This document shows, piece by piece, positions 1-3,859 of a DNA stretch of 64,000 nucleotides. The notes beneath the pieces were generated by a model, which saw nothing but the letters and a program-made list of their open reading frames with translations, ran no database searches and had not been told where the DNA came from. How positions within the stretch are numbered: the stretch's first letter is position 1; every line of letters starts with the position of its first letter. The position numbers and the translations under genes were made by a program. The DNA is from an uncultured Candidatus Saccharibacteria bacterium. Its GTDB lineage: Bacteria; Patescibacteriota; Minisyncoccia; Phycocordibacterales; UBA9973. The stretch covers positions 66,450-130,449 of the forward strand of contig CAZBZO010000002.1 in NCBI GenBank assembly GCA_964496425.1, given 5' to 3'.

Positions 1-240
1 GAAATCACAACCAATAGTCAGAGCTTAACCTTTGTGGTTGGTGATCAGAATATTTATCCTGAAGGTGCATGCGTACTTAGTGCTGATTTGAATAATGACT
101 GTCGCGTGAACTTGGTAGATTTTTCAATTTTAGCGTTTTGGTATTTAAAACCATTTCCTCCAACACTTGTTGATTTAAATGGTGACGGTAAAGTGACACT
201 GATAGACTTTTCAATAATGGCATTTTATTGGACAGGTTAA
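1..240 (+). CDS. C-terminal end of a dockerin-repeat protein (5' truncated by window edge)
   Basis: Open frame runs from nt 1. Two tandem ~22-aa repeats, DLNNDCRVNLVDFSILAFWY and DLNGDGKVTLIDFSIMAFYW, match the type-I dockerin calcium-binding repeat pattern (D-x-N-x-D-G-x-V-N-x-x-D). Confidence 0.5.
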   Translation, partial: EITTNSQSLTFVVGDQNIYPEGACVLSADLNNDCRVNLVDFSILAFWYLKPFPPTLVDLNGDGKVTLIDFSIMAFYWTG

Positions 241-255
241 CCAAGAATTGTACTC

Positions 256-1176
256 ATGGATCATCATATACAAATATCATATTGGAATAAAGGAAACACT
301 GTATTATTGTGCTGTGCTATTTTAATTTCAATATATTTTTTACCACTCACTCTTCATGCCGCAACACTTTATTTTGAAAAACCAAGTGGTGAATACGGAA
401 TCGGCGATACGCTCGCTGTGCCTCTTAAACTTGATACATCAGGGGTAGCAGTAAATGCGATATCTGCGGAAATCATTTTCCCTGAAGCATTAGTATCAGT
501 GAGTCGTATTCAAGATGCCAATTCGCCAGTGACACTATGGATCGATCCTCCGAAAATTTCCGGAAGCTCACTGTCGTTTGCCGGTATTATGCCTGGCGGA
601 TTTACGAGCGTGATTGAGCCTGAAACAAACACTAATGTGCCGGCAACCATTCTTACGGTTATTATCACGGTTGAAAAAGCAGGAGATGGAGAAATTAATT
701 TTTCCGAATCAAATTTGTATGTAAACGATGGCAAGGGTACTCGTGCCAATCTCTTGGCCATACCGCTTTTGCTTCATTTTAATAAAGAAGGATCAGGTAA
801 GGCGTATGTAATACGGGACAACATTCCACCAGAGGCTTTTACGCCGCTTGTGACAAACGACCCGAATCTCTATGACGGAAAGTACGTACTTATTTGGAAT
901 ACAACTGACAAAGAAAGCGGGATAGCGTATTACGAGGTAAAAGAGGGGAATGGGCCATGGATGCGTGCCCAAAGTCCCTTCGTACTTGCCGACCAAACCA
1001 TGAAAGGGAGTATCAAGGTGAAAGCTGTTGATCAAGCGGGGAATATTCGCATCGGTTCAACTGGCACTGCGCCGCAATTTCCGATTTCAATTTTTATAAT
1101 TCCTGCTCTACTGATCCTTATTCTTCTCCTTATCTTGCGTCGCGTGTATACTAAACATATTCGCAGAAAAATATGA
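256..1176 (+). CDS. cohesin-like domain surface protein with C-terminal TM anchor
   Basis: N-terminal signal peptide. The beta-rich module (GDTLAVPLKLDTSGVAVNAISAEIIFPEALVSV...PVTLWIDP) resembles the cohesin-domain proteins common in CPR. C-terminal hydrophobic helix followed by a basic tail. Confidence 0.5.
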   Translation: MDHHIQISYWNKGNTVLLCCAILISIYFLPLTLHAATLYFEKPSGEYGIGDTLAVPLKLDTSGVAVNAISAEIIFPEALVSVSRIQDANSPVTLWIDPPKISGSSLSFAGIMPGGFTSVIEPETNTNVPATILTVIITVEKAGDGEINFSESNLYVNDGKGTRANLLAIPLLLHFNKEGSGKAYVIRDNIPPEAFTPLVTNDPNLYDGKYVLIWNTTDKESGIAYYEVKEGNGPWMRAQSPFVLADQTMKGSIKVKAVDQAGNIRIGSTGTAPQFPISIFIIPALLILILLLILRRVYTKHIRRKI

Positions 1177-2918
1177 AAAAATTCCTAATTTTTTTAGCTG
1201 TACTTACGATGTCGGTGCTCTTTGTGCCGAAAGTATTTGCTGCATCATTACTCCTCTCACCCTCAACTGGTGCGTATAAAGTTGGCGATTCTTTTTCCGT
1301 ACAGGTGTTCGTGGCAAGCAACGGCACTGCAATCAATGCTGTATCAGGCTTAGTAACCTATCCGGTAGACAAACTCTCGCTTACCAATATCTCTTCAAGC
1401 GGAAGCATTATCAATTTTTGGACGGTCAATCCGATCAAAGAAGTAAATGGTGCCCACTTTGAAGGAGTGGTACTCAATCCTGGCTACACTGGATCAAGCG
1501 GGAAAATAGTTACGCTTAATTTTAAGGTGTTGAAAGAAGGAGTGGCAACGTTACTTTTTTCTTCTGCTGCAATACTAGCGAACGACGGCTTAGGTACCAA
1601 TGTCCTTGAAACAATTGGTAGTGCCACATACTCGCTCGGAGCAGCTGCGCCGATTTCCACCACCCCAGCAGGAGCACTCGTGCCCCTTGCGCCTGTAGTA
1701 TCTTCACGTACGCATCCGGACCCTGAAAAATGGTATCCATCGCGTGATGTTGAGCTTGGTTGGACACTTGAAGAAGGCACGACTGGTGCAGCTGTGCTTG
1801 TCGATGAGCTTCCCAATACCAATCCAGGCACTAAATCGCTCGGTACGATAACCTCATACGCTCAGACGCTTTCCGCTGATGGTGTCTGGTATGCTCACGT
1901 TCGACTTTTAAATAAATATGGTTGGGGTGGAGTGAGTCACTTCCGCTTGCAGACAGATACGGTAGCGCCAAGTTTGTTTACTATTGAAACACAACCAACT
2001 GAAGAACAAGTGCCATTTGTAAAACTTAAATTCACTGCAACTGATGAACTCTCTGGCATAGATCAATACAAAGTTTCCATTGATGGGGGAGAAGAGAATG
2101 TTTGGACAGATAGTGGCACAAGTATTTACATATCCCCGCATCTTACTCCAGGAAAGCATACACTGATTGCCAAAGCATTTGATAAAGCCGGGAACAATCT
2201 TGCAGCGTCGGTGGACTTTGAAATTACCGCAATCGAAAAACCAGTCATTGAAAAATATCCTAAAAATTTGAAAGACGGTGACTTCTTGATACTCTCCGGT
2301 CATTCGTATCCAGACGCTCGCATTGCTATTATCCTCAAACCAACGCTCCAAGAAAGTACGTCATACTTTGGAACCGTTCGCTATCAAAGTGCTGATGTAA
2401 ATTTGATTACCCGAAGTGTGATCGCGGATCGTAATGGTCTCTTTACCTTTGCCTATGACGAACGAGTACACAGTGGTATCTATACCGTTTATGCGATTGC
2501 GGAGCTTGAAAACGGGGCCCAAAGTCTTCCCTCTGACTCTGTCATAATAGTAGTTTCGCAGACGCTTATTGAACGCATTGTCGGGGTTGTTTCAAAGACG
2601 CTTATTCTTCTCATCCCGTTTATTGGCCTCCTGGCGCTCTTGGCAGGACTCATTTGGTATATCTGGTATCGCTATCGACTTTTCAAAAATCGCGTCAAAA
2701 GAGAGGTATATCAAGCAGAGGAAAGCATCCGGTCTGATATTGGGCCAATAGATGAAAAACTTCGTGCAGAAGTGATCTTACTTCGCAAGCTTCATGCAGG
2801 CGAGCCACTCGCAGCTCATGAAGTGGCCTTCTTAGAACAACTCGATCGCGAAATTGCCGCCGCCGCCGGGCATATTATGGAAAAGGTGGAAGATATCAAT
2901 CAGAGCCTCGGTAAATAA
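1173..2918 (+). CDS. large cohesin-like domain surface protein with Ig/FN3-like repeats, C-terminal TM and cytoplasmic coiled-coil tail
   Basis: Signal peptide. Module YKVGDSFSVQVFVASNGTAINAVSGLVTYPVDKLSLTNISSSGSIINFWTV is paralogous to the module in the upstream gene. ATGA start/stop overlap with the previous gene. TM helix near residue 520. Confidence 0.5.
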   Translation: MKKFLIFLAVLTMSVLFVPKVFAASLLLSPSTGAYKVGDSFSVQVFVASNGTAINAVSGLVTYPVDKLSLTNISSSGSIINFWTVNPIKEVNGAHFEGVVLNPGYTGSSGKIVTLNFKVLKEGVATLLFSSAAILANDGLGTNVLETIGSATYSLGAAAPISTTPAGALVPLAPVVSSRTHPDPEKWYPSRDVELGWTLEEGTTGAAVLVDELPNTNPGTKSLGTITSYAQTLSADGVWYAHVRLLNKYGWGGVSHFRLQTDTVAPSLFTIETQPTEEQVPFVKLKFTATDELSGIDQYKVSIDGGEENVWTDSGTSIYISPHLTPGKHTLIAKAFDKAGNNLAASVDFEITAIEKPVIEKYPKNLKDGDFLILSGHSYPDARIAIILKPTLQESTSYFGTVRYQSADVNLITRSVIADRNGLFTFAYDERVHSGIYTVYAIAELENGAQSLPSDSVIIVVSQTLIERIVGVVSKTLILLIPFIGLLALLAGLIWYIWYRYRLFKNRVKREVYQAEESIRSDIGPIDEKLRAEVILLRKLHAGEPLAAHEVAFLEQLDREIAAAAGHIMEKVEDINQSLGK

Positions 2919-2925
2919 ATTTTAC

Positions 2926-3014
2926 TGCGGAGGAGGGGAGATTCGAACTCCCGATCGAGTTTCCCCGACGCTGGTTTTCGAAACCAGTGCCTTCAACCAC
3001 TCAGCCACTCCTCC
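2926..3014 (-). tRNA. tRNA-Ser (anticodon CGA)
   Basis: Reverse complement folds as a cloverleaf: acceptor GGAGGAG/CTCCTCC, anticodon loop UUCGAAA (CGA), long variable arm, T-loop TTCGAAT, discriminator G, CA present. Confidence 0.85.
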
Positions 3015-3758: not shown

Positions 3759-3830
3759 GGCCTTATCGTCTAACGGTTAGGACATCGGCTTTTCAAGCCG
3801 GTAATCCGGGTTCGATTCCCGGTAGGGTCA
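3759..3830 (+). tRNA. tRNA-Glu (anticodon TTC)
   Basis: Cloverleaf: acceptor GGCCTTA/TAGGGTC (with GU pairs), D-arm GTCT/GGAC, anticodon loop TTTTCAA, T-arm CCGGG-TTCGATT-CCCGG, discriminator A. Confidence 0.85.
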
Positions 3831-3859
3831 CAACATTCAATAAAATTTATTGAAGTCTT

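Follow-up and report, generated by a model that had tools for sequence, protein, structure and literature searches.

The first 2.9 kb of a 64,000-nucleotide (nt) stretch of DNA from an uncultured Candidatus Saccharibacteria bacterium (NCBI GenBank assembly GCA_964496425.1, contig CAZBZO010000002.1, positions 66,450 to 130,449 of the forward strand; this whole stretch is referred to as the window) carries three consecutive genes, termed D, E and F, which encode one dockerin protein and two paralogous cohesin proteins. The D-E-F locus most likely specifies a snap-together cell-surface structure with no link to cellulose degradation. In its more specific form, which is considered probable, the three products make up a non-cellulosomal, Ca2+-dependent cohesin-dockerin surface complex, with E and F forming the membrane-bound stalk and D forming a detachable distal piece. 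The evidence consists of the domain content of the three proteins, the predicted folds and membrane topology of E and F, and the conservation of the gene order among related genomes.

The dockerin protein

Gene D is represented in the window by its 3' end (positions 1..240, + strand, frame 1), where the open reading frame (ORF), ORF0, runs off the window start and leaves the last 79 codons and the stop codon. Its translation ends in ACVLSADLNNDCRVNLVDFSILAFWYLKPFPPTLVDLNGDGKVTLIDFSIMAFYWTG. The preliminary description of this DNA, made from the letters alone, had reported two dockerin calcium-binding repeats at the end of this ORF, and both can be read in the sequence. Repeat 1 (85..150, + strand) contains the 12-residue, EF-hand-like Ca2+ loop DLNNDCRVNLVD (residues 29-40), with D or N at loop positions 1, 3, 5, 9 and 12, followed by FSILAFWYLK. 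Repeat 2 (172..237, + strand) contains the loop DLNGDGKVTLID (residues 58-69) followed by FSIMAFYWTG, which is the extreme C-terminus of the protein. The ligand positions 1/3/5/9/12 are occupied by D29-N31-D33-N37-D40 in the first loop and by D58-N60-D62-T66-D69 in the second, and DFSI.AF follows each. The fragment therefore displays the duplicated Ca2+ loop and putative helix segment by which a type I dockerin is recognised.

Profile searches agree with this reading. Pfam Dockerin_1 (PF00404) matches the window fragment at 33.3 bits (E = 5.6e-8) and the full-length protein at 27.5 bits, both above the gathering cut-off of 22.9. The same model matches 48/65 D orthologs at E <= 1e-3, and the D-family profile in turn matches solved type I dockerins (2y3n_B, E = 3.1e-6; CelS 1daq_A, E = 1.9e-4). 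Across 66 dockerin orthologs, D1, N3, D5, N9 and D12 of the loop and the F-S-I that follows are conserved at 80-90% or more. The dockerin is terminal in every D-family member checked (71/71), with at most two residues after it (...YWTG and stop). Its two halves are near-identical, VDFSI.AY.W being common to both, and this symmetry resembles that of the symmetric type I dockerins and would agree with dual-mode binding or with both cohesins being engaged. In addition, two cysteines of the fragment, Cys24 and Cys34 (window 70-72 and 100-102), flank the first Ca2+ loop (C..L.ADLNNDC). Each is found in about 40% of the 66 orthologs, and a disulfide between them may stabilise loop 1.

The remainder of D was recovered from elsewhere. 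Other public contigs, which belong to two metagenome assemblies at NCBI and one assembly derived from SRA data, carry ORF2, the product of gene F, at 100% identity. Full-length D was taken from one such identical contig, L002, that reaches 5.5 kb further upstream (D = L002:3645-4571). The complete protein has 308 amino acids (aa) and consists of a signal-peptide-like N-terminus, a Gly-rich linker, two immunoglobulin (Ig)-like domains and the C-terminal dockerin. The first Ig-like domain is Big_6 (32.8 bits against a cut-off of 27.6) and the second is a beta-rich region. The preliminary description had proposed to look upstream of the window for a catalytic or binding part of the dockerin protein; the missing part turned out to be the Ig-like domains, and a Pfam scan of all 308 aa found no catalytic or carbohydrate-binding domain. 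D orthologs are often longer, at 350-500 aa (L005:5851-6903, L009:6861-7943, L014:6438-7934 and L034:3545-4720), and begin with Cys-rich modules, one of which matches DUF4215 (E = 2e-12), followed by a poly-Gly linker. The variability of D accordingly resides at its N-terminal end, away from the dockerin.

The two cohesin proteins

Gene E (ORF1; 256..1176, + strand, from the ORF list) encodes a small cohesin protein of 306 aa, and gene F (ORF2; 1173..2918, + strand, from the ORF list and the sequence) encodes a large one of 581 aa. The genes are closely packed, with 15 nt between D and E and -4 nt between E and F. The latter value corresponds to the ATGA overlap at 1173-1176, in which the ATG of ORF2 lies over the TGA of ORF1, as had been noticed before. 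By sequence comparison, E and F are paralogs, again in agreement with the preliminary description. BLASTP aligns ORF1 and ORF2 at 26% identity across the N-terminal ~150 aa (E = 3e-13), with a second match in the Ig-like domain (E = 0.001), and hhalign aligns the E- and F-family profiles with a probability of 100% (E = 1.1e-47). According to the hhalign alignment, ORF2 differs from ORF1 by a further domain of ~100 residues that separates the two shared ones and by additional C-terminal parts. The E family comprises 35 homologs, all of about 250-350 aa, and the F family comprises more than 285 homologs of about 580 aa.

Both proteins have the topology of secreted, membrane-anchored proteins, and the signal peptide and C-terminal anchor previously attributed to each could be located. 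The N-terminal hydrophobic signal regions span residues 15-33 of ORF1 and 4-22 of ORF2. The C-terminal membrane helices, identified by hydropathy scored in 19-residue windows, peak at residues 276-294 of ORF1 (3.09) and 476-494 of ORF2 (2.72), and are delimited at residues about 276-298 of E (1081..1149, + strand) and about 474-496 of F (2592..2660, + strand). A basic stretch follows each helix, namely RRVYTKHIRRKI after that of ORF1 and RYRLFKNRVKR directly after that of ORF2. The combination of an N-terminal signal, one C-terminal membrane helix and a basic stretch places the body of each protein outside the cell and its C-terminus inside.

Between signal and helix, E consists of a cohesin module (residues about 36-176; 361..783, + strand) and an Ig-like domain of the OmpL47/Big_13 type (residues about 190-270; 823..1065, + strand). 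The latter matches NCBIfam barrel_OmpL47 at 29.8 bits, under the cut-off of 40, and aligns with the Ig domain of ORF2; the E-family profile also matches the Ig-like domain of chitinase 6bt9 (E = 0.0013). F begins with its own cohesin module (residues about 24-156; 1242..1640, + strand), which is the best-conserved part of the protein, and continues with a stalk of three beta-sandwich domains (residues about 170-462; 1680..2558, + strand): an FN3-like domain (about 170-262), an Ig-like domain of the Big_13/OmpL47 type (about 263-352) and a third Ig-like domain (about 353-462).

AlphaFold2 (AF2) models were built from two family alignments, A1 with 94 ORF2 relatives and A2 with 35 ORF1 relatives, and reached a mean predicted local distance difference test (pLDDT) score of 88.9 for ORF2 (F) and 91.9 for ORF1 (E). 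The model of E has a helix at 278-305, and that of F has helices at 465-540 and 548-578 with pLDDT 50-75. In F, the residues past the membrane helix (497-581, 85 aa; 2661..2915, + strand) form a cytoplasmic tail that is kept across the family, with L546 and E550 near-invariant in the F-family alignment. The modest-confidence model shows this tail as two long helices, and some heptad periodicity is present. Of the cytoplasmic coiled-coil tail that had been described for the larger protein, the helical tail is thus supported by the AF2 helices, and the coiled coil is plausible at most.

Cohesin identity of the N-terminal modules

In a model-based structural comparison, the N-terminal modules of E and F both adopt the nine-stranded flattened beta-sandwich (jelly-roll) fold of cohesins, which is the outcome that the preliminary description had expected from structure prediction. 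The structural matches include the cohesins of the anchoring scaffoldins OlpA and OlpC (3ul4, 4dh2) near the top. At the level of families, the E profile matches solved cohesins of Ruminococcus flavefaciens (5aoz_A, E = 3.6e-5; 5m2o_A, E = 1e-4), and Pfam Cohesin (PF00963) is matched by 7/35 E-family members at E < 0.01 (best 4.3e-6) and, among 120 listed F-family members, by 24 in precomputed annotations. Single-sequence phmmer searches of ORF1 and ORF2 against the PDB returned nothing useful. Because the predicted fold and the family-level sequence evidence agree, both modules are regarded as divergent but genuine cohesins. The hidden Markov model (HMM) check proposed at the outset accordingly gave a mixed result: Dockerin_1 was recovered directly, and Cohesin was recovered with the families and profiles and not with the window proteins themselves. 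The preliminary reading withstood both of the refuting conditions that had been set for it.

The two modules also share a (L/Y)xNDGxGT loop past cohesin strand 8, at residues 135-142 of ORF2 (window 1575-1598) and 154-161 of ORF1 (window 715-738). It is invariant or nearly so in both families, and might bind a metal or contact a partner.

Conservation of the operon

Relatives were found with the peptide pattern LANDGxGT[ND][IV] in species-representative genomes, which yielded at least 585 confirmed relatives in Patescibacteria species representatives. Gene order was determined from 80 fetched loci (L007-L086, species representatives, roughly 16 kb each), whose ORFs were classified with family HMMs. 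E lies upstream of F in 68/70 loci, and D lies upstream in 62 of the 63 loci having at least 2.5 kb of upstream sequence, on the same strand throughout. A total of 66 complete D-E-F triplets were obtained; their order on one strand is nearly universal and their gaps are short or negative. Each of the about 80 loci has exactly one dockerin, which always ends D. Pfam scans of three further genomes gave the same succession of Big_6 plus Dockerin, then a cohesin-like protein, then another cohesin-like protein. The 64 kb window likewise yielded no further dockerin or cohesin beyond the one dockerin and two cohesins. The idea of a self-contained dockerin-cohesin set, first put forward for this single locus, finds strong support in the synteny.

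All named relatives belong to Patescibacteria, a group also called the candidate phyla radiation (CPR), which confirms the CPR origin suspected from the sequence. They come from Parcubacteria/Paceibacterota and from Magasanik-, Falkow-, Portnoy-, Wolfe-, Colwell- and Jorgensenbacteria, and also from Brenner-, Vogel-, Wildermuth-, Komeili- and Doudnabacteria. An exhaustive search with the F profile produced 6,353 clusters (50% identity) at E <= 1e-30. The best matches are mostly about 570-600 aa long and align end-to-end, and some clusters are giant multi-Ig proteins. Among the matches listed, the closest to ORF2 in GTDB species representatives is from Portnoybacteria at 41% identity, and the nearest non-identical protein has 53% identity; given these values, the source organism appears to be without a close genome representative. 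Some operon-bearing metagenome-assembled genomes (MAGs) are labelled as Gammaproteobacteria, Pseudomonadales, Planctomycetia, Methylomirabilis or Deferribacteres (loci L011, L015, L018, L033, L044, L048, L053, L059, L060, L075, L077 and L084). These are probably mislabelled or contaminated bins, since the loci resemble those of Patescibacteria.

A single ORF of about 800-900 aa encodes E and F together in at least eight distinct representatives (proteins P0014, P0030, P0033, P0162, P0163, P0165, P0172 and P0220, of which P0162 is L019, L019:6871-9471). The fusions imply that E and F work together. They retain the membrane helix of E and the signal-like hydrophobic segment of F, including its VFA/AS motif, so that a fused protein would either cross the membrane in three places or be cut apart again by signal peptidase. 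Apparent D-E or D-F fusions were also encountered and were rejected as artefacts of domain-table reading.

Evolutionary rates and candidate binding surface

The dockerin and the F cohesin are the slowest-evolving modules of the operon, with mean p-distances of 0.42 and 0.46, respectively. The E cohesin is at 0.66 and the rest of F at 0.62-0.66. Because the F cohesin evolves as slowly as the dockerin, F would be the likelier dockerin partner of the two. In a mirror-tree analysis, the dockerin correlates with the F cohesin at r = 0.46 (partial 0.32) and with the E cohesin at r = 0.35 (partial 0.20).

In solved cohesin-dockerin complexes such as 1OHZ, the dockerin is contacted by the 8-3-6-5 sheet of the cohesin. 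The positions conserved in both paralog families (F numbering) are N55/A56, W83, P87, G98 and L135-T142. With strand numbers assigned from the strand order in the AF2 model, these doubly conserved positions would lie in strands 3, 5, 6 and 8, that is, in the dockerin-contacting sheet.

Proposed complex and alternatives

In the proposed complex, E and F would act as type I membrane proteins, each with a cleavable signal peptide, a cohesin at the mature N-terminus, an Ig/FN3 stalk and one C-terminal helix. As the cohesin is placed at the mature N-terminus, it would be the end farthest from the membrane. Translational coupling would supply E and F at a ratio of 1:1, and in some lineages as one fused polypeptide, and the two would stand side by side in the membrane with their cohesins kept at a distance from the cell surface. 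With two Ca2+ bound in its fold, the dockerin of D would then plug into a cohesin, more likely that of F. The resulting two-piece fibril would run from the membrane through the stalk, the cohesin-dockerin junction and the Ig domains to the variable N-terminal tip of D, and would display or tether material on a wall-bearing, single-membrane cell. Its purpose is probably adhesion, to a host or partner, or scaffolding and tethering of the envelope, and not polysaccharide degradation.

Several observations weigh against this complex. There is one dockerin only, which leaves the second cohesin without an explained need, and no D-E or D-F fusion was found among the loci examined. The co-evolution signal is weak; it slightly favours F and is confounded by the common phylogeny. 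The window's own E has no Pfam Cohesin match, and its F scores 14.4 bits (E = 0.045), below a cut-off of 24.1 that serves as an operational threshold and carries no structural definition. The F-family profile, when searched against the PDB, matches Ig-like domains and coiled coils and none of the solved cohesins. Finally, the NDGxGT loop could be matched to no canonical cohesin feature, and its invariance is left without explanation.

Alternatively, D, E and F would belong to one surface structure in which the cohesins of E and F do not bind the dockerin of D. They would bind one another, a ligand of the host or partner, or dockerin proteins encoded elsewhere, and the dockerin of D would have another partner or act only as a Ca2+-stabilised C-terminal cap. 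The E-F fusions and the ATGA coupling show that E and F act together, yet D is never fused to either; the E cohesin evolves fast (p-distance 0.66), as expected of a module facing a variable ligand; and there are non-cellulosomal cohesins, such as that of TMEM132 (PMC6030884), for which no dockerin partner is known. This arrangement is nevertheless rather unlikely, given that D is adjacent in 62/63 loci and that exactly one dockerin stands beside exactly these cohesins at each locus. The dockerin and the F cohesin are moreover the two most conserved modules, the conserved cohesin positions appear to fall on the dockerin-contacting strands, and binding has been demonstrated for non-cellulosomal cohesin-dockerin pairs of archaea, according to work cited in PMC9012536. 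A more elaborate possibility, judged to be on the doubtful side, is that D-E-F is a lineage-defining surface organelle of Patescibacteria. Here the snap-together, two-piece fibril would have a membrane stalk made of an E/F heterodimer, whose two cohesins would take up the symmetric dockerin of D, either between them or on them. Contact with the host cell would be made by the variable N-terminal tip of D and, where they occur, by the variable secreted proteins encoded upstream (B, see below), and the conserved cytoplasmic tail of F would link engagement at the surface to the inside of the cell.

Two further explanations were considered. A minimal cellulosome-like system, with the cohesins as surface anchors for dockerin-tagged carbohydrate-active enzymes whose genes lie elsewhere in the genome, would fit the combination of one cohesin and a cell anchor, which resembles the scaffoldins OlpA and OlpC that are among the top structural matches (3ul4, 4dh2). 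It is very improbable, because the sole dockerin protein of the operon has Ig-like domains and zero catalytic or carbohydrate-binding modules, no other dockerin occurs in the 64 kb window or in the about 80 loci of roughly 16 kb, and a multi-cohesin scaffoldin is absent. A cellulosome is recognised by a multi-cohesin scaffoldin, dockerin enzymes and a carbohydrate-binding module; here each protein carries a single cohesin and the complete dockerin protein carries neither an enzyme nor a carbohydrate-binding domain, so the earlier judgement that the locus is not a cellulosome holds. The N-terminal modules could alternatively be purely mechanical stalk beta-sandwiches of the CnaA-like/CLIPPER type, crosslinked by isopeptide bonds, in place of dockerin receptors, with a resemblance to cohesins that arose by fold convergence. 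Such a bond is formed by a Lys in the first strand, an Asn and a catalytic Asp/Glu (doi 10.1101/2025.04.25.650565). Neither family consensus has a conserved Lys in its first strands, and the CnaA/CLIPPER structure 9ifr_A ranks behind 18 cohesins in the structural comparison; this candidate was rejected, and the chance that it is correct is very slight. The non-cellulosomal complex with E and F as stalk and D as distal piece is the favoured reading.

Comparison with known systems

Non-cellulosomal cohesin-dockerin pairs have been surveyed by Peer et al. 2009 (PMC3035643, cited in PMC9012536). Among such pairs, the Archaeoglobus fulgidus cohesin (2xdh) and the cohesins of the Clostridium perfringens toxin complexes (GH84C cohesin-FN3, 2w1n; GH33, 2vo8) are comparable in being non-cellulosomal, and the D-E-F proteins would work in a similar way. 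The proteins described here differ from them in the C-terminal membrane-helix anchor, in the cytoplasmic tail of F, in a dockerin carrier that has Ig-like domains only and no enzyme or toxin, and in the fixed three-gene operon that spans a whole radiation. The anchoring scaffoldins of Clostridium thermocellum (OlpA, OlpC and SdbA; 3ul4, 4dh2 and 5k39) share the property of being single-cohesin anchors, a second parallel in how the complex would work. They are attached to the wall via SLH domains and tether enzymes or the CipA scaffoldin, whereas E and F use a transmembrane helix (not SLH or sortase), form a paralog pair that is sometimes fused, and have an enzyme-free cargo.

In overall architecture, F parallels holozoan TMEM132/coherin, a predicted adhesion molecule whose parts follow in the same order, with a cohesin outside the cell, some three Ig-like domains, one membrane helix and a tail in the cytoplasm (PMC6030884). 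TMEM132 is eukaryotic, no dockerin partner of it is known, and the likeness to F is one of shared domain types. The dockerin and cohesin sets of anaerobic methanotrophic (ANME) archaea (PMC9012536) are a functional precedent in that they occur in non-cellulolytic, partner-dependent (syntrophic) microbes, where a role in organising the cell surface or the contact between cells has been proposed for them. They differ in being variable and in having multi-cohesin proteins, dockerin-tagged solute-binding proteins and no fixed three-gene operon. A link to SEML1_0315, a dockerin protein reported as essential in the Saccharibacterium Southlakia (Cell 2023, PMC10633639), was considered and rejected: its gene encodes 927 aa, lies between a hydrolase and a tRNA gene, and is not in an operon of this kind.

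Flanking genes

The operon end is marked by two tRNA genes, tRNA-Ser(CGA) at 2927..3014 on the - strand, 8 nt past the ORF2 stop and in the opposite orientation, and tRNA-Glu(TTC) at 3759-3831 on the + strand, somewhat further downstream.

Upstream of D and outside the window, the identical contig carries three further genes, in the order B, B, C (L002:1-3637), with intergenic gaps of 7 and 11 nt. Similar arrangements are seen in L005, L008, L012, L015 and other loci. Gene C encodes 344 aa with a signal peptide and a C-terminal membrane helix, and matches Pfam WxLIP_PGBD weakly and below the cut-off (7/33 family members, best E = 1.6e-4). The two B genes, one large and one of ~350 aa, encode secreted products with a common C-terminal domain of ~170 residues (consensus ...STNAxxGY...GTEQFG...AGSYTxTITYxATxNF). 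This domain has no Pfam or PDB sequence match, and no WxL match was obtained in 25 B-family members; a WxL-like appearance was noted by eye alone. C was recognised in 34/58 loci and B in 15/48, both of which are lower bounds. In comparison with the near-universal D-E-F, these frequencies identify D-E-F as the core and B-B-C as a frequent upstream extension. A promoter and terminator scan of the identical contig gave a site count not above chance. A single extended -10 promoter-like site immediately precedes B and zero + strand terminators lie inside B-F, which is suggestive only.

The B and C genes may be a distant analogue of the WxL/Csc surface clusters of Firmicutes. The likeness consists of a C protein with a signal peptide, a C-terminal membrane helix and a weak WxLIP_PGBD match, preceded by secreted B proteins that have a C-terminal domain in common. 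The differences are that no WxL domain was detected in B and that WxL clusters themselves are without cohesin or dockerin.

Significance

Cohesin and dockerin domains are known already, as are non-cellulosomal pairs of them. A literature search on dockerin or cohesin in Patescibacteria, CPR, Parcubacteria or Saccharibacteria found no description of the D-E-F operon. What appears to be new is the fixed operon itself, its breadth in the CPR, the cohesin pair with its transmembrane anchors and occasional fusion, and the cargo made of Ig-like domains only. Cohesin-dockerin biology is thereby extended in four ways, by transmembrane anchoring, by a paralog pair that is sometimes fused, by an enzyme-free cargo and by a cytoplasmic tail.

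Most of the ultrasmall CPR/Patescibacteria have not been cultured, and a life in attachment to other cells is assumed for them. To our knowledge, little has been established about surface construction and attachment in the large lineages of the Parcubacteria type. Cohesin-dockerin pairs are among the strongest protein-protein plugs known, and the D-E-F locus offers a biochemically testable hypothesis on the CPR cell surface. Its three small modules could be produced and assayed in Escherichia coli, with no need to culture the organism. If the organelle interpretation were true, the operon would provide a general genetic handle on how CPR cells other than Saccharibacteria attach to their partners.

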